A stretch of 64,000 nucleotides of DNA from Eledone cirrhosa (Eukaryota): NCBI GenBank assembly GCA_964016885.1, contig OZ024743.1, positions 261,950,001 through 262,014,000 of the forward strand. Direction: 5' to 3'. Below are positions 22,600 to 50,792 of the stretch, piece by piece. The stretch's first letter is position 1. Every line of letters starts with the position of its first letter. Below the pieces are notes generated by a model. That model saw nothing but the letters and a program-made list of their open reading frames with translations. It was not told the origin of the DNA and did no database searches. A program made the translations under genes and the position numbers.

Positions 22600-23040
22600 G
22601 GCCCATGGCTTAGTGGTTAGAGCGTTGGGCTTGCAATCGAAAAGTTGTGAGTTCAAATCTCGGACTGGGTGATGTGTTGTTTCCTTGAGCAAGACACTTT
22701 ATTTCACATTGCTCCAGCTTACTCAGCTGTAGAAATGAGATGATAGGACTGGAGTCCCTATCATTCCACTGCAAAGTGGTCGTGGAGGTGCCACGGCAAA
22801 AAAGCACCCAGCCCACACTGTAAAGTGGACGTGTAGGCACCACAGAAAAAAAAGCACCCAGTCCACACTGTAAATAAGGTTGGTGTTAGGAAGGGCATCC
22901 AGCCGTAGAAAACCTGCCAGATAGTCCTGTACAAGCGAGACACGGTCACCCAACCAATCTTGCTTCAAGTGGGACAATTCCCATCTAACCCATGCTAGCG
23001 TGGAAGATAGACGTTAAACGGTGATGATGATGATGATGAT
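22600..23040 (+). mobile_element. Full-length tRNA-derived SINE with RTE tail
   Basis: A and B boxes, CORE-like block, RTE 3'UTR and (GAT)n tail. Confidence 0.88.
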
Positions 23041-23872: not shown

Positions 23873-25804
23873 TGTACAAGGGAAAGGGTAACAGGAATGA
23901 TTGTGGGAACTACAGAGGTATATCATTGCTTTCTGTCGTAGGGAAAGTTTTATGTGGGGTGCTTCTGGACCGTCTGCTGACACACATTGCAGATTGTGTT
24001 CTTCCTGAAAGTCAATCTGGTTTTCGTGCTGGACGCGGCACTACTGATATGATCTTCTCAGCTAGACAACTCCAGGAGAAGTGCATGGAACAAAGTTTGG
24101 ATCTGTATCAGGATTTTGTCGATCTGACAAAAGCTTTCGATACTGTTAACAGAAATGCATTATGGAAGGTTCTCCAGAGACTTGGTTGCCCTGATAAGTT
24201 CCTTGCTTTAGTTAGGTCTTTCCATGATGACATGAAGGCTTGGGTTAATGTCGGAGGTAACATGTCGGAGCCTATCTCAGTAAAAAAATGGAGTGAAACA
24301 GGGGGATATTCCAGCACCGACCCTGTTTGCCATATACTTTGCAATGGTTTTCTGTATTGCATTCAGGAATTGCGAGCATGGTGTTTACATCCGATATCGA
24401 ACCTCAGGCAGCATATTTAACATCAGGCGCTTTGCTGTAAAGACAAAAGTATTTACATCAATCATAAGAGACCTCTTGTATGCAGATGATTGCGATCTTG
24501 TAGCGCACACAGAGAGTGATATGCAGCACATTTTGAATGCATTTTCTGACGCTTGCACTGCTCTAGGATTGACTGTCAGTCTCAAGAAAACCGTCGTCAT
24601 GTACCAACCTGCCCCTGGTAAGCAGTACAGTGAACCAAATATTTATGTGTATGGTAAACGACTTGGAGTGGTTGATCAGTTTGTCTACCTGGGGAGCACT
24701 GTCAATCGATACAGCAACCTTGATAGTGAAATCTCACTTAGGATTAGGAAAGCAAGTGATGCTTTCGTAAGCTAGAAAGGTGACTCTGGGGTCGGCGAGA
24801 CATATGCAAGAAGACAAAAGTAAAGGTGTACAAGGCATGTGTGATCTCTTCTCTTCTTTATGCCTGCAAGACCTGGGTCACATATCGACACCACCTTAAG
24901 CAATTGGAGCGTTTCCATCAGATGTGTCTCAGACGGATCCATGGCGTTCACTGGAGGGACCACATCAGTGATATCGAGATTTTGGAAAGCTCTATGTGTG
25001 ACAGTATAGAAGCTCTTGTGCTTAAGCAACGACTCCGTTGGAGTGGTCACCTTGCCAGGATGAAGGATTCTAGAATACCAAAACAACTCTTTGATGGAGA
25101 GTTAGTTAAAGGAAAACAACTGCCACATAAACCAAAAAAGAGGTATAAGGATTCCTTGAAAGCCTCTTTGAAAAACGCTAACATCTCTGCTGATACATGG
25201 GAAAATATTGCTGCTGATCGTAATAAATGGAGACAGACTGTATATGAGGGAAAAGTTGCCTTTGAGGCATCTCGAATCGCATACAAGAAAGTAAAGCGGG
25301 ATGTGAGGAAGGGCATTGCTGTTGCACTTCCAGACAGAGAGCGTCCTCTTATGGTGCTGACATGCAGTGTCTGTGCGAGACACTGCCTAAGCAAAGTTGG
25401 ACTCGAAAGTCATCTTCGCAGTCATAAAGTAAGACCAGTGGTTGACTACCAGGCTGCTGTTGGAGATGCTACTCATCATGCTTGCCAAGCATGTGGTAGA
25501 GAATGTAAATCAGCAGGAGGGCTCAAGCGACATGCAAAAGTACATGAACTCCAACCACAGCCGGCTATTCCCAGTGAATGTTTTGGTTGCCGACGCTGTG
25601 CAAAACATGTTAGATCATTGGCTGGGCTAAAAAGCCACATTCGATCGCAGCGCTGTTAGTTGCTATCGTGTGTGTGTGTATAGATATGTTTCTGTGTGTG
25701 CGTGTGTGTGTATATATATATATGTATATGTATATTATTATTGTTTTATTGTTGTTGTTGTCGTTATCATTATTGTTGTTATTATTATTATTATTATTGT
25801 TATT

Positions 25805-28944: not shown

Positions 28945-29589
28945 ATATATATATATATATATATATATAAGTATAATTTCAGCTAGATCGACTCTTTATA
29001 ATATAACCACACTCTACTACTCCAAGTATTGAGTACTCTGTTGAGAAATGGTCTAACCAGTTTCAAACTGATTCTATCTTGATTTATAAATATGTATGTA
29101 TGTATACAAAAGGCGGAAGAATTCATAAGAGTCAACGGCCATCCAAAACTGTGTAAATATGTATATACATGTATGCATGTGTATATGTATATATGTATAT
29201 ACATGTATACATGTGTATGTACATGTGCGGTTAAACCACTGGGAGTGAAGAACCCCTAGCTTTTGTCAGGGCATTCTTCTAGAAGAAGGCAACTCAGGAA
29301 ACTGGGATAAATCCGATGTAAAACCTACGGCTCAGTAGTTACCGATGATGTTGATCTTTTCTTCTTTTTGGGTTATAGCTACTGCCGCTCAGAGAGTGGG
29401 ATTGGCTCAGTGCACAGTCTTTCATCACTTTTTAAAAAATCTTCACGCACAGGCATAGAATTAATTGATAATTATCAATAATGTTATATTGTGCAATGGC
29501 CATACTCGATAACAAGGGGGCAGCCATTATGTATGTATGTACATTTCCTCATATTTCAAATCATGTATTATTATTTTCTCTTGTTTTAG

Positions 29590-29631
29590 CTGTCATTGGG
29601 TATGTCCATACCCACATGAATGAGGAGAGGG
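29590..29631 (+). CDS. Mucin-like gene, short N-terminal exon (VIGYVHTHMNEER)
   Basis: Pyrimidine tract TTGTTTTAG acceptor, G|GTGAGT donor, 42 nt, phase 1-1, in frame with the next exon. Confidence 0.65.
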
Positions 29632-30362
29632 GTGAGTATTATTCAATTTTCATTTAATTCTTTGTTTATTTCTTTCTTTTTGTTTTGATATCTTTTGTTC
29701 TCTATGTGTCCCTTAATCCATTGTAATACACTGCTTCAATACAAAATAGTATAGGCATGGCTTAGTGGTAAAGCTGTTAGCTTCACAATGGTGAGGTCTG
29801 GGATTCAATCTTGCTGTAATGCATCTTGCACCAGAGTCTTTACTCTGGCTTCAGTTCATCCACTGCAAGCCTTATGAATGAAATTAGGTAGACAGATACT
29901 GTTTAGAAGCCTATTGGATGGTTTATACTTGTAATTCAAAGGTCCAGCTTTGTCACATATTCACATTGATTCAGTAAAGTGTAGATGTGTCGGTGGAATA
30001 CAGTCGAGGCTAAAAAGAAATCAAGCTAGTGTGTTCCGTTAGATGTGTAATGTTAGCATGCATGAAAGACAAAACATAGACGAGTTGAAAAAAAAATCTG
30101 GGCATATAGATGATGATTGTAGAAGAAAGAACCAAGAGTTCCTAGTTTATATATATTTTCATATACACCTCTTTTATGCTTAAATGCTGTCTTAGTGCCA
30201 CTGCCAGTTAAATATAACCAACCAAGTTTGCACTAAATGCAATTGAGTATTTCCAGCTGATGTTTTCAATTTGCTATATGCAAATGAGTATCTCCAACAA
30301 ATGTTAATCACACAAAATTCTATATAGACTCTAGTCTACTTCCATGCCAGTACAGGCTGAGT

Positions 30363-30416
30363 GAGTGTCACTGATGAAAGATTAAAAAAATCTTGAAACA
30401 GTGCTGTCTGACATTC
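30363..30416 (+). ncRNA. Canonical type I hammerhead ribozyme motif
   Basis: gagtgtca-CTGATGA-aagatt(aaaaa)aatctt-GAAA-CAG(tg)CTGT-C-tgacattc: full core, GUC site, 8-bp stem I extended by TGCCAGTACA/TGTACTGGCA. Confidence 0.85.
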
Positions 30417-30627
30417 TCAAAATGTACTGGCAATTCTGTGATGTACTCACAGAAAATTTTCATTACGAAAAATGTTTTTTCTTTGATAGCAATGCTACCC
30501 ATATGCTTATTTTATATATAGATTATGATAAACATATAATATATATTTATATATCTTTTCATATACACCTCTATTATGTTTAAATTCTGTCTTGGTGCTA
30601 TTACCAATCAAATATACACACACACAC

Positions 30628-30679
<52 letters not shown>

Positions 30680-31277
30680 AATCATCATCATCACCGTTTA
30701 ATGTCCATTTTTCAATGCTAGCATGGGTTAGATGAGTTGTGAGACAAGTCAGATCAGGTGACCATGCATTGCTCATACAGAACTGGTTCTGGCTTGGTTT
30801 CTATGGCTGGATGTCCTTCCTTGTGCCAACCACATTTACAGTGTGTACTGGGTGCTTTTTGTCATGACAGCTACACAACCACTTTACTTTATTCTTATAT
30901 ATATATATATATATATAAGTATACAGGATGATGTACTGAAGCACAGAGATGCTATAAAAATAGCTTATAAAATAGGGTGAAGGCCCTTAAAATATGGAAA
31001 AAGACACACACACACACATATATATAAATCAATATTTGGTGTGAAATTATATTTGGTAATACTTTAATGAATAATTTGCACCACGCGTAATTATTTTTAA
31101 TACATTAGGATTTCGTACACATGGTTGTTAGAAAAATGTTTTTAAGGAAGTATGTATGATACATAGCCTTATGTACAGTTTATTATGATATATTACCGTA
31201 TTTTGAGCTGATTTAACTTCTCCACCTACTTCTTTCTAGTTTTTATATTTGAAAACGAAATTCTTTATATACATACA

Positions 31278-32710
31278 TCTATACATATATATAAAACTGA
31301 AATTGTCTGTGTGTGTGTGTCCTAATTTTTGCAAAGTCTATACAAATCCACATTTCTACTCCGATTGACTTCAAACTTGCATTTATATTCCTTGCGGTCT
31401 AAAGATATTAACTGCAGCTTTTATTTTTCAATTTTCTGTTGTTAAAGGGGTGTTAGACACCGGTTAGCGATCTCTCTCTCTTTCTTAGTCTGTCTTTTTA
31501 GATAGATACATAGCTATAACGTCGCGCTCTTATAATATCTGTCTGTATGTCTAGCTGTCTGCATTACGACATTATGAAAACATTGTTCTCATTGCTGACG
31601 TATTATCTTCGCTATATTCCGTTCACTGCCAGGGAACGTCTTCACGAACCAAAGTATCGTCTTCCTGTTTTCCTTCGGTTGCAACGTTTTACGAAATATT
31701 TACTTCTGCGTTCACAGATTGATTTTTTTAGTTTCAGAAAATCCCGTTAAGGGTGAAAGCAGCGATTCTTTGCTTAAACTTTAATCTGTTATTTTAATAT
31801 ATATATATATATAATTATATATTCGTGTACAGATATTTTTGCATACGCAAAAACAAAATATAAACAAACGTATTTATTTCACGAAAGCACAGACGGCTTA
31901 TCGTCATTGTTACTGCCGATATGCCACCCAAAAAGTCCCACTACTTTTGGCACAAGGCCAGCAATTACATAGTCAACGGTTCGGAAATCACATGCATCAC
32001 TGACGAGTTTACTCCTTACTCTACCAGTTAGTCTTAGTGTACTTTGTCCTGCTTTTAGCTCATGCCTCGGAGGATGAGATACTCCATTGGCCGAAATACT
32101 GTGAAAGAGGCAAGAAAAAGAACAAGGCAGGCAAACAAATCGTCAGTGGAATCTGCTATTCGCCGGTCGCAAGATGCTGAACATACTGCCATCAGAAGAG
32201 CACTTGAAACAGACAACCAACGAACCATTTGCCGAACCGTGCTAGCTTTGCAATGTCTATCAACAAATCCCAGGGTCAGACCCAAGCTGTTGCTGGTCTT
32301 CTTTTGGAAGAGTCATGTTTTTCACATGGGCAACTATACATTGGCTGCTCAAGAGTGGGAAGCAAAACAAATCTATTTGCATATGCCCGACATGGAAGAA
32401 CAAGGAACATTGTGTACACGGAGGTGCTACAATCATTGTTTAGGTAGATGAGGTAGAAGGGGATATACACGATTGGCTGAAGAAGGATGAGACTGTGTTA
32501 ATAGTACGACCAACGGCTGCTATCACACCAACAGCAACAAAAACAAAAAATTTTGAAAAATCTTAATGGAAAATTATTTGCCTCAGCACAAAATGTAGAC
32601 ACCATCCCCAGGCCGAGGTATTCCGTACTTCTCTGTACTGTTTCAGAAAGGAGGGATAAACATGCCAATCTATGTTTAGAAGCCCGAGCAACGCCGGGCC
32701 ATTCTGTTAG
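31278..32710 (+). mobile_element. Internally deleted Helitron with a PIF1-helicase C-terminal remnant
   Basis: A|TC 5' end; CCCGAGCAACGCCGGG hairpin and TTAG|T 3' end. 32229-32447 encodes FAMSINKSQGQT...FSHGQLY..CSRVG...TRNIVYTEVL. Confidence 0.88.
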
Positions 32711-32839: not shown

Positions 32840-33073
32840 AGACGGTCACTGACTGGTTTATAAAAGTCAGAAAAGCTTCAATCCGTGGTGAGCTACTGAA
32901 AAAAATGCGCTCAAGAAATCCAGAAAATTGTGCTTTAAAATGTCTTGAAATGGAAGATTGTAAATCTTTTGAGTTTAAAATAAATCGGAGAAAGTGCTAC
33001 CTCTTTGCAAATGATGCTTCTACAGAGACTCTGAGGAGAAAACGTAGATCCACTTTCTACCAACTAGAGAATG
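32840..33073 (+). CDS. Mucin-like gene exon: PAN/Apple domain 1
   Basis: TTGTAG acceptor, G|GTATAG donor, 234 nt, phase 1-1. CALKCLEMEDCKSFEF...CYL...FYQ fits the PAN pattern (C-x3-C-x5-C-x-S-F-x-F...C-x-L). Confidence 0.88.
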
Positions 33074-38713: not shown

Positions 38714-41700
38714 AGAAGCCAAAATTTACTACAACAACTACACCATATATTGAAAAGTCAACAACACCTACTTTAGAGTCCACAACACCATCTACACCAG
38801 AGTCAACAACTCCCACAATGCCAGAATCAACAGCTCCCACAACACCAGAATCAACAACACCCACAACACCAGAGTCAACAACAACGCCCTCTACTGACGA
38901 AACCACAATACCTGATATTGAAGCAACTGGACCATCAGTTTCTGGTGTAGAGTCAAAAACTCCCACAACGCCAGGGTCAACAACTTCCACAATACCAGAG
39001 TCAACAACTCCCACAACACCAGGGTCAACAACTTCCACAATACCAGAGTCAACAACACCCACAACACTAGAGTCAACAACTTCCACAACACCAGAATCAA
39101 CAACAACGCCCTCTACTGACGAAACCACAATACCTGGTATTGAAGCAACTGGACCATCAGTTTTTGGTGTAGAGTCAACAACTCCCACAACACCAGGGTC
39201 AACAACTCCCACAACACCAGGGTCAACAACTCCCACAACACTATGGTCAACAACTCCCACAACACCCACAAGACCAGGATCAACAATACCCACAACACTA
39301 GAGTCAACAACACCCACAACACTAGAGTCAACAACACCCACAACACCAGAATCAATAACTCCCACAACAGCAGAATCAACAACTCCCACAACACCAGAAT
39401 CAACAACTCCTACAACACCAGGGTCAACAACTCCCACAACACCAGAGTCAACAACTCCCACAACACCAGAATCAACAACTCCCACAATACCAGAGTCAAC
39501 AACACCCACAACACTAGAGTCAACAACACCCACAACACCAGAATCAACAACTCCCACAACACTATGGTCAACAACTCCCACAACACCCACAAGACCAGGA
39601 TCAACAATACCCACAACACTAGAATCAACAACTCCTACAACACCAGGGTCAACAACTCCCACAACACTAGAGTCAACAACTCCCACAACACCAGAATCAA
39701 CAACTCCCACAACACCAGAGTCAACAACACCCACAACACTAGAGTCAACAACACCCACAACAGCAGAATCAACAACTCCCACAACACCAGAATCAACAAC
39801 ACCAGGGTCAACAACTCCCACAACACTAGAGTCAACAACTCCCACAATACCAGAATCAACAACTCCCACAACACCAGAATCAACAACACCAGGGTCAACA
39901 ACTCCCACAACACTAGAGTCAACAACTCCCACAATACCAGAATCAACAACTCCCACAATACCAGAGTCAACAACACCCACAACACCAGAGTCAACAACAC
40001 CCACAACACCAGAATCAACAACTCCCACAACACCAGGGTCAACAACTCCCACAACACCAGGGTCAACAACTCCCACAATACCATGGTCAACAACTCCCAC
40101 AACACCAGAGTCAACAACTCCCACAACACCCACAACACCAGAATCAACAACTTCCACAATACCAGAGTCAACAATACCCACAGCACTAGAGTCAACAACT
40201 CCCACAACACCAGAGTCAACAACTCCCACAACACCAGAGTCAACAACTCCCACAACACCAGAGTCAACAACAACGCCCTCTACTGATGAAACGACAATAC
40301 CTGGTATTGAAGCAACTGGACCATCAGTTTCTGGTGTAGAGTCAACAACTCCCACAATACCAGATTCAACAACTCCCACAACACCAGAATCAACAACTCC
40401 CACAACAGCAGAATCAACATCTCCCACAATACCAGAGTCAACAACTCCCACAACACCAGGGTCAACAACTCCCACAACACCAGAATCAACAAGACCCACA
40501 ACACCAGAGTCAACTACACCCACAATACCAGAATCTACAACTCCCACAACACCAGGGTCAACAACTCCCACAACACCCACAACACTAGAATCAACAACAA
40601 CGCCCTCTACTGACGAAACGACAATACCTGGTATTGAAGCAACTGGACCATCAGTTTCTGGTGTAGAGTCAACAACTCCCAAAATACCAGAGTCAACAAC
40701 ACCCACAACAGCAGAATCAACAACGCCCTCAACAGCAGAATCAACAACTCCCACAATACCAGATTCAACAACTCTCACAACACCAGAGTCAACATCTCCC
40801 ACAACACCAGGGTCAACAACTCCCACAATACCCAGGTCAACAACTCCCACAACACCAGAGTCAACAACTCCCACAATACCAGAGTCAACAACTCCCACAA
40901 CACCAGAATCTACAACACCCACAATGCCAGAATCAACAACTCCCACAATACCAGGGTCAACAACTCCCACAACACCTCCAACAATTATGCCATGTGTAAG
41001 TCAGTCTGTATCACCCACTGATGTACAGTCAACACATTTTACTGAGCATTCAACAACACCATCTAAAGTACAGTCTACTACACCCTCATCATCACTGTCA
41101 ACAACACCCTCTACTGATCAATCAACAGCACCAACCATTGTCTCTTGTGCAGAATCTACCACAACTACAGATCAATCAACAACGAAACCACCAGCATGTT
41201 TTTCAAAGCCTGCAACGAAAACAACTGAAGAAATAACATATTCTGTTGAGCAAACAACAAAACCCACCATTGAATCAACAACACCAGAGTCAATAACTCC
41301 CACAACACCAGAATCTACAACTCCCACAACACCAGAGTCAACAACTCCTACAACACCAGAATCAACAACAACACCCTCTACTGAAGAAACTACAATACCT
41401 GGTATTGAAGCAACTGGACCATTAGTTCCTGGTGTAGAGTCAACAACACCCACAACACCAGAATCTACAACACCCACAACACCCACAACACCAGAGTCAA
41501 CAACAACGCCCTCTACTGAAGAAACCACAATACCTGGTATTGAAGCAACTGGACCATTAGTTCCTGGTGTAGAGTCAACAACACTCACAACACCAGAATC
41601 TACAACACCCACAACACCCACAACACCAGAGTCAACAACAACGCCCTCTACTGAAGAAACCACAATACCTGGTATTGAAGCAACTGGACCATTAGTTCCT

Positions 41701-42403
41701 GGTGTAGAGTCAACAACACCCACAACACCAGAATCTACAACACCCACAACACCCACAACACCAGAGTCAACAACAACGCCCTCTACTGAAGAAACCACAA
41801 TACCTGGTATTGAAGCAACTGGACCATTAGTTCCTGGTGTAGAGTCAACAACACCCACAACACCAGAATCTACAACACCCACAACACCCACAACACCAGA
41901 GTCAACAACTCCCACAACACCAGAGTCAACAACTCCCACAACACCAGAGTCAACTCCCACAACACCAGAATCAACAACACCCACAACACCAGAGTCTACA
42001 ACACCCACAACACCAGAATCAACAACACCCACAACACCAGAGTCTACAACACCCACAACACCAGAATCAACAACACCCACAACGCCAGAGTCTACAACAC
42101 CCACAACACCAGAATCAACAACACCCACAACACCAGAGTCTACAACACCCATAACACCAGAGTCTACAACACCCACAACACCAGAATCTACAACACCCAC
42201 AACACCAGAGTCAACTCCCACAATACCAGAGTCAACAACAACGCCCTCTACTGATGAAATCACAATACCTGGTATTGAAGCAACTGGACCATCAGTTTCT
42301 GGTGTAGAATCAACAACTCCTCCAACACCCTCAACACCAGAATCAACTACTCCCATAACACCAGAATCTACAACTCCCACAACACCAGGTATTGTAAATC
42401 CAG
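38714..42403 (+). CDS. Mucin-like gene exon: ~1230-aa PTS/Glu-rich repeat region
   Basis: TCTTTTCCTATAG acceptor and CAG|GTACGG donor (alternative CAG|GTATTG at 42388), phase 1-1. Open for 3.7 kb with PESTTPTT repeats; length variation between repeats is in whole codons. Confidence 0.92.
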
Positions 42404-43210: not shown

Positions 43211-43344
43211 AGTATATAGGATGTTATAAAGATTCTTTACACAAGAAGGCAATGCCAAGTTACTTCATTATCTCCCAAAAGATGACAGTTGAGATATGTA
43301 CAACACATTGTGGAATAAAAGGATATAAATTTGCTGGACTTGAG
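43211..43344 (+). CDS. Mucin-like gene exon: WSC domain, N-terminal half
   Basis: CAG acceptor, GAG|GTAAGT donor, phase 1-0. Encodes YIGCYKD...MTVEICTTHC..KGYKFAGLE. Confidence 0.92.
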
Positions 43345-44384: not shown

Positions 44385-44743
44385 ATACGATATTAACAAA
44401 TGGAAACTATATTTATAAAACCATATTTATTTCATTATACATATTTCAAGGACACCAAGTTAAATTATGGTGTGCTTTCATCAGATAAAATATAATATAG
44501 AGCAGTTTTATAAATAAATATTGACATACCCTTAAAGAATGCAACCATTACTGTTGGAAGCTCCCAGGAGCTTCCAACAGTAATGGTTGCATTCTTTAAG
44601 GGTATGTCAATATTTATTTATAAAACTGCTCTATATTATATTTTATCTGATGAAAGCACACCATAATTTAACTTGGTGTCCTTGAAATATGTATAATGAA
44701 ATAAATATGGTTTTATAAATATAGTTTCCATTTGTTAATATCG

Positions 44744-45846: not shown

Positions 45847-45901
<55 letters not shown>

Positions 45902-45931
45902 ATCAAAAGATGGTTAAAAGAGTTTCCATGT

Positions 45932-46000
45932 ATTTTATTATGCGCATTTCAAAAACAAATATCATCGTGTAATAACATTTGCGTTTTCGTCAGATAAAAT
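45932..46000 (-). ncRNA. Type I hammerhead motif with long stem II and palindromic ATGCGCAT stem III
   Basis: attttat-CTGACGA-(~16-bp stem II)-GAAA-TGCGCA-TA-ataaaat, inside the repeat at 45897-46066. Confidence 0.8.
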
Positions 46001-46204
46001 AGGGAGACATGATATGAAGGTTAAAACACACTTGTGAATAGTGCAGTTATACACATACGTGTGCATACGTACATACACACACACACACACACACATATAT
46101 ACATATATAACTAAATATATATATATATGATAAAGAACATAATTATTATATATATATATATATAAAAAATAAATATTGTATATATAAAAAAAATATTGTA
46201 TATA

Positions 46205-48875: not shown

Positions 48876-49857
48876 CCCCCCCCCCTCACTCTCAAGCGTG
48901 AACCTAATACTAACACTTTGTACTGCACTCTTCGTTATTGTTTTTGTTTTCTGTTTTAACTTATATATATATATGAATTTTGGTAAAGTTTATGTGCATT
49001 TTTTCTTCAAACTTCTATTTTGTACCTAACTCCGTGTAGTTAATTATCTGTCTAGTCAATTTCTACAGGCTAAAAGAAATAATTAGATAAATGGCATATG
49101 ATTGTACATTGCGGAAGATAGTCTGTATAATTTGTTTATTATTTCTTCTTCGTCATCATCATCATCATCACCGTTTTACGTCCGTTCTTCCACGCTAACA
49201 TGGGTTAGACGGGTTATCCTGTTGTGGGCAGTGTCTGGTCGGCTGACCTTGTCTTGCTCGTACGGGAACTGATTCTGGCTTGATTTCTACAGCTGGATGC
49301 CTTTCCTAATATGAACCTCATTTACAGCCAGTGCTGGGTGCTTTTTTTTCCGTGGCGCCTACACGTCCACTTTACAGTGTGGGCTGGGTGCTTTTTGCTG
49401 TGGCACCTCCACGACCACTTTGCAGTGGGAGGGTGTGGGGGCATATTGTCTATATGCTTCAGCTTCGGCTTGTACCTGTCGGGGGTCGGGTCTTCTGTAT
49501 TAAAAATATGGAACGCTTCACAAATTTGTGTGTCATGATTACATTTTAAACTTATAGCCTCGTTTAAATGATTTTTTATGTGGTTGATTTATACGGATAG
49601 GAGAGGAAATACTGTATATATTTGATCTAATAGTTCTTCAGGCTTGCAATTTTATTTTTATATATATATATATGAAATAAAGTGTCTTGTTCAAGGAAAC
49701 AACACATCACCCGGTCTGAGAATTGAACTCACAACCTTTCGATTGCATATATATATATATTGATATGTTGATTTGTTGCATATATATATATATTGATATG
49801 TTGATGTAAAACTGCACTATCCACAAGTGTTTTTTAGCCTTCATATCATGTTCTCCT

Positions 49858-49926
49858 GTTTTATCTGATGAAAACACAAATATTATTGCATGATGATGTT
49901 TGTTTTTGAAATGCGCATAATAAAAT
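49858..49926 (+). ncRNA. Type I hammerhead motif, inverted homolog of 45932-46000
   Basis: gttttat-CTGATGA-(long stem II)-GAAA-TGCGCA-TA-ataaaat, inside the repeat at 49803-49960. Confidence 0.8.
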
Positions 49927-49955
49927 ACATGGAACTCCTTTAACCATCTTTTGAT

Positions 49956-50069
<114 letters not shown>

Positions 50070-50656: not shown

Positions 50657-50792
50657 CATGCTGGAGAATGTTATTGTGGAAATAGTTATGATTTGTATGG
50701 CCGTCAAAAGGAAGAATATTGTAATAAAAAATGTGCAGGTCACAGTAAATTAATCTGTGGTGGGGCCACTTCTTTGTCAGTTTATCATTCAG
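50657..50792 (+). CDS. Mucin-like gene exon: WSC domain, C-terminal half
   Basis: CTTTAG acceptor, CAG|GTAAAA donor, phase 0-1. HAGECYCGN...CNKKCAG....CGG...LSVY completes the 8-Cys WSC pattern. Confidence 0.92.

Follow-up and report, generated by a model that had tools for sequence, protein, structure and literature searches.

A hammerhead ribozyme motif on the sense strand of a predicted intron raises the question of whether it serves the gene in which it resides or is what remains of a mobile element that came to rest there. The motif considered here is located in a window of 64,000 nucleotides from Eledone cirrhosa (contig OZ024743.1, positions 261,950,001 to 262,014,000 of assembly GCA_964016885.1), and coordinates are given as positions in this window. 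The insert that carries it is very probably an old, dispersed, non-coding hammerhead repeat of approximately 400 nucleotides, likely a non-LTR retrozyme, which was copied by a Penelope-like reverse transcriptase/endonuclease into an intron of a mucin/WSC gene and is likely inert there.

The hammerhead, its insert and the predicted host gene

The motif at 30363-30416 (plus strand) is a hammerhead of type I, in which stems II and III are closed and stem I opens to the flanks (8 + 6 + 3 pairs for stems I, II and III). Its catalytic core is intact and is composed of CUGAUGA (30371-30377), GAAA (30395-30398) and GUC (30406-30408); the core positions C3 U4 G5 A6 N7 G8 A9, G12 A13 A14, A15.1-U16.1 and H17 are all satisfied, and cleavage is predicted 3' of C17, at 30408. 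Stem I (30363-30370/30409-30416) consists of 8 pairs including one G-U, and stem II of 6 pairs, five A-U and one G-C, closed by an A5 loop; pair 10.1-11.1 is A-U, as it is throughout this retrozyme-like family. A first-pass annotation of the locus had described the perfect core, the GUC site and stems of 8 and 6 bp, all of which are borne out, and so is its distal 10-bp extension of stem I (30345-30354/30423-30432), in which all 10 pairs are Watson-Crick. Including this helix the ribozyme spans 30345-30432, with a stem I that runs through 8 bp, a 2-nt bulge, 3 bp, an internal loop and the 10-bp distal helix. Stem III had been given four base pairs, which would force a 2-nt loop; the actual stem has three (A15.1-U16.1, C-G and A-U) and a GUGC loop, where the form most frequent in the family has CG at 30402-30403. 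This short stem is a self-complementary 10-mer (30398-30407, two G-U pairs) which is predicted to pair between two ribozymes. Loop II is A5 in the window copy versus AACA in most family copies, and 30357, near the stem I bulge, also differs from the family; the long bulged stem I is present and both of these likely sites of tertiary contact are altered. An Rfam search returned no hammerhead family at the gathering score or at E values up to 10. Divergent hammerheads can escape the Rfam hammerhead models. To describe the motif as fully canonical was an overstatement in view of its 3-bp stem III with a palindromic loop, A-U-rich stem II, mutated loop II and missing Rfam match.

The descriptor found no match in any of 10 shuffles of 324 kb, from which it follows that the motif is not due to chance. 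The 101 nt at 30340-30440 fold at -32.6 kcal/mol (z -4.1), which none of 200 shuffles equalled, and over 23 copies the stems are paired in 87% of cells versus 27-43% when slid. Covariation in stem I was no greater than in shuffles (95-213 of 500), in an alignment which left out the truncated copies L039 and L096 and in which stems II and III are fixed by the search pattern. Contigs of one sample, from three runs, are identical to the window over 29517-30336, which indicates that this part of the assembly is sound; among the run pieces listed none spans the hammerhead core without differences, and the contigs show other family copies and unique flank only.

The hammerhead is embedded in an insert of 471 nt (30146-30616, plus strand), equivalent to 1.18 turns of a 400-nt unit. 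The insert begins and ends with copies of the same 71 nt, which occupy 30146-30216 (unit positions 1-71, the 5' end being where this copy happens to stop) and 30546-30616, are identical at 61 of 71 positions (86%) and are spaced by exactly 400. The one-and-a-fraction unit of about 400 bp proposed in the first-pass annotation thereby holds, and its diverged direct repeat is present, with a length of 71 nt in place of the suggested 60 or so. The 3' repeat copy holds both of the 3' ends preferred in the family, at about 30575 and 30616, and the stretch between them is predicted to represent a Penelope-type tail. A (CA)n/(TA)n microsatellite (30617-30680) abuts the 3' end, a feature shared by most copies of the family, and no target-site duplication was found around the insert beyond TA runs. 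The longest open frame in the insert is 65 codons and GC is 0.33 over 30001-32000. Treated as a circle, the 400-nt unit folds with a z of -4.7 (0 of 60 shuffles as good), which is mostly due to the ribozyme; the unit outside it is weakly structured (z -2.1 and -1.0) and alignment folding of family copies gave no consensus structure for the circle.

The host gene is predicted from a chain of plus-strand exons that agree in phase. A first coding exon (29529-29631), located in single-copy DNA, comprises an ATG, a hydrophobic stretch reminiscent of a signal peptide and a phase-1 donor (gtgagt), and is followed by a 3,690-nt exon (38714-42403), which is open throughout, encodes Ser/Thr/Pro mucin-like repeats and runs from phase 1 to phase 1. 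Two further exons, at 43211-43342 and 50657-50792, encode the first and second halves of a WSC domain (Pfam PF01822 positions 1-44, E 7.7e-9, and positions 48-82, E 3.6e-7). The hammerhead would accordingly be situated in sense orientation in a first coding intron of 9,082 nt, with its predicted cut 777 nt past the predicted donor and 8,306 nt ahead of the next strong acceptor. An intronic position on the strand of the gene had been claimed before and stands as a prediction from splice sites, phases and Pfam matches in the DNA; a homologue search with the host protein scored none, which leaves the gene model to these three lines of evidence. If a weaker candidate exon, also of phase 1, at 32840-32887 were used, the intron would be reduced to 3.2 kb. 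Positions 29590-29631 were also considered as a 42-nt internal exon, which was rejected because the frame extends back through the hydrophobic stretch to the ATG at 29529.

The product would be a secreted mucin with at least three WSC domains, each spread over two exons. Further WSC-like exons lie beyond the window at +70701, +78279 and +79519 (L124, L125), and four paralogous WSC exons are found elsewhere in the genome. The surroundings contain tRNA-like heads, likely SINEs, at 22602-22669 (Rfam tRNA, 33.9 bits) and about 29755-29830, the latter in the same intron as the hammerhead, and reverse-transcriptase fragments of a non-LTR element at 23942-25500 (plus strand, Pfam RVT_1), ahead of the predicted first coding exon. 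Another plus-strand gene is represented by five or six strong exons about 41-58 kb upstream of the window (L118-L119), which may encode a C-terminal propeller like that of Rho exchange factors.

A dispersed family with recurrent 3' ends

A 481-nt query against the 3.0-Gb genome yielded 1,328 first-look candidates, of which 40 were scored to give 55 matches, the full-length ones being 71-82% identical. Exact ribozyme patterns occur at 11 and 13 places and a terminal motif at 27, all dispersed on many contigs, and among these 11, 13 and 27 places none is adjacent to another of the same pattern. The 23-mer terminal motif is held by 3 of the best 30 loci, which leads to an estimate of some hundreds of family copies at least. 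The window insert thus has genomic relatives of the same build: the internal repeat has a median period of 385 nt (30 loci), and 35 of 71 mapped loci exceed one unit with copies longer than 400 nt, the longest reaching 675 nt. (Counts over 71 loci drop the twice-fetched L037, L045, L048, L056, L059, L064 and L097, and the end counts below keep all 24 and all 27 loci, the window's own copy being among the 27.) The search for tandem arrays suggested in the first-pass annotation was run as well: two hammerhead regions stand in tandem at 3 of the 71 loci, and none of the 71 reaches an array of two full units, in a search that scores only part of the family. Li et al. call a retrozyme 'active' where two consecutive units have complete hammerheads; none of the 71 loci has such a pair, so that the window copy may be filed as a dispersed, monomer-type copy, by its sequence a putative inactive fossil retrozyme and non-autonomous Penelope-like element.

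The family copies are 5'-truncated, with variable 5' ends and microsatellite flanks, and an inverted piece adjoins the 5' end at 12 of 71 loci. Their 3' ends recur. Of 24 loci fetched with a ribozyme pattern, which does not select for ends, 10 terminate at unit positions 8-42 and 8 at 55-75, in most cases abutting (TA)n, (CT)n or (CA)n, and 6 terminate elsewhere. The two zones were defined after seeing the data, make up 14% of the unit and lie about 40 nt apart, and such clustering greatly exceeds chance expectation (p 4e-12 for 19/24 as counted by hand, about 1e-10 for 18/24). A (CT)n or (CA)n stretch tends to follow the copies that end in the first zone (L031, L040, L041, L091, L093, L098), and a (TA)n stretch those that end in the second (L032, L038, L094, L101). 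The microsatellite at either zone resembles the last letters of the copy, and could reflect microhomology priming or microsatellites grown from the element end.

The other side of the insertions is informative about the template. The 27 terminal-motif loci include 18 terminal copies, 11 of which, the window's own among them, extend past the cut site, while one starts 11 nt after it and six are shorter. The 5' ends do not pile at the cut, which disfavours linear cleaved monomers as templates. Copies that cross the cut site fit either a circular or an uncleaved template, as both give the same picture. The proposal of the first-pass annotation that the insert arose by reverse transcription of a circular RNA of about 400 nt is in this respect half sustained: the retro-inserted partial tandem and the read-through of the cut site agree with it, an uncleaved tandem transcript fits equally, and a circular template for the window copy is plausible.

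This anatomy is highly reminiscent of Penelope-like elements with a C-terminal GIY-YIG, which are described as showing 5' truncation, partial tandems, inverted 5' copies, a tail of 30-40 bp and microsatellite targets (Craig et al. 2021, PMC8557442). The tail is optional, lies between two internal start sites of the reverse transcriptase downstream of the hammerhead, and is reported together with AT-rich targets (Frangieh et al. 2024, PMC11167929). Unlike the Poseidon reverse transcriptase, which is reported to start without homology in vitro (PMC11167929), the family has 3' ends that often blend into the flanking microsatellite, and unlike autonomous Penelope-like elements the unit has no coding frame and its hammerhead is not minimal. 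It may be proposed that tandem source loci were transcribed, that their hammerheads, probably via paired palindromic stems III, cut out unit-length RNA, and that a host ligase closed this RNA into circles. A Penelope-like protein would have nicked AT-rich or microsatellite DNA and begun cDNA synthesis inside the unit, at a position either about 170 or about 210 nt 3' of the predicted cut; the reverse transcriptase would then have crossed the cut junction, passed its own start and stopped once 471 nt had been copied, which would account for the 71-nt direct repeat.

Non-LTR retrozymes are reported as units of 150-450 bp (350-390 bp in mussel) whose circles are closed by RtcB and for which Penelope-like elements have been proposed as helpers (PMC7229834). 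By description, the present repeat being known from DNA, it resembles the retrozymes of Mytilus galloprovincialis (Cervera and de la Pena 2020, PMC7229834) in its non-coding unit of 350-400 bp, its low GC, its type I hammerhead with a short tetraloop-capped stem III, its many copies and the Penelope-like elements in the same genome. It differs in having no dimers or longer arrays (longest copy 675 nt, 71 loci) and in belonging to an old, decayed family. The monomeric retrozymes of Xenopus are similar in that they exist as dispersed solo copies, which spread evenly, and in that mobilisation by Penelope-like elements is proposed (Li, Clavereau, Pollet, bioRxiv 10.64898/2026.07.22.740005). The link drawn by Li et al. 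is homology to pLTRs, which is not found here in the 36 loci tested; the link here is the anatomy of insertion, namely two 3' ends, inverted pieces and microsatellite flanks.

The choice of template also defines the main competing explanation, which we regard as improbable, in which the unit derives from a once autonomous, now extinct Penelope-like element, either as its terminal (pseudo-LTR) portion or through internal deletion, was copied from linear, uncleaved tandem RNA with no circles involved, and acquired its partial tandem in the manner usual for Penelope-like insertions. The insertion signatures, all of them Penelope-like, and the lack of a multimer in 71 loci suit this explanation, and there are precedents: unprocessed RNA is the main substrate of Poseidon reverse transcriptase in vitro, with the hammerhead dispensable (PMC11167929), and non-autonomous elements of Chlamys insert head-to-tail without canonical hammerheads (PMC8557442). 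As Li et al. regard retrozymes as pLTR derivatives anyway (bioRxiv 10.64898/2026.07.22.740005), the difference concerns mainly the template. Against it, the DNA upstream re-enters the unit and reaches another hammerhead (3 loci), and never a coding frame. Fragments of Penelope-like proteins (RT/GIY-YIG) occur within 1.5 kb of 2 of 81 family loci, both downstream and both from other families, and no sequence match to the 400-nt unit was found in 36 Penelope-like loci (20 + 16 of more than 10,000 GIY-YIG candidates). The hammerhead, with its full 6-bp stem II and 21-bp extended stem I, is unlike the minimal form reported for pLTRs, and the unit has the size of mussel retrozymes (PMC7229834).

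The genome contains 10,597 GIY-YIG candidates. RT + GIY-YIG frames that run uninterrupted for 844-1,096 codons are present at L102:3809-6622 (minus strand), L103:2488-5019 (plus) and L104:1775-5062 (plus), which are read as recently active Penelope-like elements. In one Penelope-like family of autonomous type (L105, L106, L111, L117) a minimal hammerhead is followed, after about 150 nt, by two alternative ends that lie about 45 nt apart, a layout like that of the unit, with 3 copies ending at one and 1 at the other, about 350-410 nt past the end of the frame; the first end of this family resembles the first end of the unit over about 9 letters, which is too short to count. The Penelope-like fragment beside the unit in L009 was considered as a helper and rejected, as its family lacks the unit, and it is taken to be a neighbour at the same (TA)n.

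For a retrozyme-like repeat mobilised by a Penelope-like enzyme, as preferred here, the individual locus has little meaning, being one passenger among hundreds. The family is a fairly clean record of its own movement, in which two 3' ends, inverted 5' pieces and cut-site read-through tie a full-sized hammerhead repeat to Penelope-type reverse transcription; in the papers cited here the link between retrozymes and Penelope-like elements is argued from co-occurrence and pLTR homology. A literature search, which did not extend to the supplement of PMC7229834 with its further invertebrates, found no such family described in a cephalopod, and mollusc terms searched in the supplements of PMC4918200 are not present there.

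Cleavage, decay and the fate of the intronic copy

A sense-strand ribozyme in a long intron could in principle cut the transcript before splicing is complete, and the first-pass annotation had suggested such a race with splicing. The corresponding explanation is that the copy has been retained as a functional ribozyme and, by cleaving the mucin/WSC pre-mRNA while the 9-kb intron is still incomplete, lowers or times expression. It has the sense orientation, a core and stems that are intact after about 8% decay, and a position close to the donor (777 nt) and far from the next strong acceptor (8.3 kb) in its favour, and the CPEB3 ribozyme and amniote intronic hammerheads (cited in PMC7229834) as precedents. 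We nonetheless consider it very unlikely, on account of how the ribozyme is predicted to fold, of how the family has decayed and of what else the gene contains.

In nearest-neighbour calculations the active fold of the monomer lies 5.2 kcal/mol above the ensemble in all contexts from 88 to 701 nt but one, and the monomer is predicted to misfold because the strands of stem III pair into the core. The same applies to all 12 intact copies scored, which lie 4.3-9.4 kcal/mol from the active monomer fold. A CpG change at 30402 was examined as the lesion that disables the window copy and was rejected, since it is worth 0.7 kcal/mol and the misfolding is family-wide. A dimer formed via the palindromic stem III is predicted at -33.0 versus 2 x -12.7 kcal/mol. 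The folding therefore points to help from a dimer, and activity of the monomer would be compatible with it, as such models undervalue hammerheads, omitting tertiary and Mg2+ terms. The weak palindromic helix III and the predicted advantage of two ribozymes over one are features in common with the dimeric amphibian hammerheads of the satellite-2 type (axolotl HHR_Amex1/2); helix III of the window copy has two pairs beyond A15.1-U16.1, like HHR_Amex2 and like hammerheads of invertebrates for which monomer cleavage is also described (PMC7229834).

Published rates vary widely. For monomer hammerheads of coral and mussel, co-transcriptional cleavage in vitro is reported at 0.8 and 0.1 per minute, which favours a working ribozyme, and axolotl monomers are reported to be 6-22% cut in an hour (PMC7229834); 1 of 9 Xenopus retrozyme dimers cleaved in vitro, which speaks against one (bioRxiv 10.64898/2026.07.22.740005). 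The calculated fraction cut in 5-10 minutes is 39-63% at 0.1 per minute and 5-10% at 0.01. Cutting need not prevent splicing, as introns cut by hammerheads were still spliced in mammalian cells (Dye 2006, Fong 2009, as cited in PMC2995048), whereas splicing was blocked by a fast HDV ribozyme (as cited in PMC2995048). The window hammerhead would at most nick the nascent intron slowly, which splicing likely tolerates. As a copy with a single ribozyme it cannot release a circle by itself.

The decay of the family can be read from its repeats. Divergence between the paired repeats of one locus is 0.20, and between repeats from different loci it is 0.21 (23 loci, p 0.052), and the best repeat pair among 30 copies is 86% alike. 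Variants shared between the two repeats of a locus are barely present, and a single template is neither supported nor opposed by them. The near equality of the two values implies a family of near-star shape which arose in one old burst, with about 10% decay per copy. If the family decays at the 0.0036 per million years adopted for Octopus (PMC13282606), it would be about 20-35 million years old. The loop III CpG has decayed across copies to TG in 9, CA in 8 and TA in 2, with CG in 5; of the derivatives only TG retains palindrome pairing in RNA, and the even decay to TG and CA shows no sign of selection on the family copies.

In the window copy, 5 of 87 positions in the ribozyme and 43 of 363 outside it deviate from the majority letter of their alignment column, an excess conservation that is not significant (Fisher p 0.12), and its ribozyme region folds best of 11 copies (z -7.0). 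A better-kept and best-folding ribozyme leaves some room for selection, weakly, in a copy that was picked for being intact. The descriptor is also passed by 3 of the best 30 family copies and by 9 more pattern-fetched ones, and intact copies are therefore expected without selection. The changes specific to the window copy, in loop II and beside the stem I bulge, fall where tertiary contact is likely and count further against a retained function, and 42-44% of Xenopus retrozymes are intronic (bioRxiv 10.64898/2026.07.22.740005). Insertion into this intron by chance is likely.

The amniote hammerheads HH9 and HH10 are sense-strand, intronic and domesticated ribozymes which are conserved between species and stand alone. 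The window hammerhead is like the CPEB3 ribozyme in being a self-cleaving motif, here a putative one, on the sense strand of an intron, here a predicted one, and unlike CPEB3 and HH9/HH10 in lying within a complete repeat copy whose decay is like that of the rest of its family. Domestication in this intron would mean CPEB3-like control of a secreted mucin/WSC gene in an invertebrate. There is correspondingly little chance that a hammerhead from a fossil retrozyme sets the level of the mucin/WSC message as an invertebrate counterpart of the CPEB3 ribozyme with the transposon body still present. A regulatory role in the host gene is unlikely, and the race with splicing is weak as a function given the predicted misfolding of the monomer, the lack of significant extra conservation and the other sense-strand motifs in the gene.

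Other hammerheads in the window and the genome

Two of these other motifs, which also argue against a working ribozyme, are on the sense strand in a later intron of the host gene (44647 and 49865) and belong to other families, and three further hammerhead motifs in the gene are on the opposite strand. Hammerhead motifs of other families number 5 in 260 kb of other loci and 10 in 324 kb overall, which corresponds to tens per megabase in the DNA sampled, not a random sample. Single motifs of other builds also flank family loci (L030:213 and L017:3310, both minus strand, and L020).

The motif at 44647 (plus strand) is part of a near-perfect inverted pair (44420-44720, centre near 44569), each arm of which carries an other-family hammerhead motif. 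The cores, at 44484 (minus) and 44647, have a long stem II, a palindromic loop III and an AUA site. The pair is an inverted insertion of Penelope type and lies in the intron that separates the two WSC exons. Another hammerhead family, the third and a younger one, is present at 45900-46060 (minus) and 49800-49960 (plus), both copies ending in (TA)n, and near-identical motifs are found in L019, as an inverted pair, and in L107 and L112. This younger family is the better place in which to seek living retrozymes or pLTRs.
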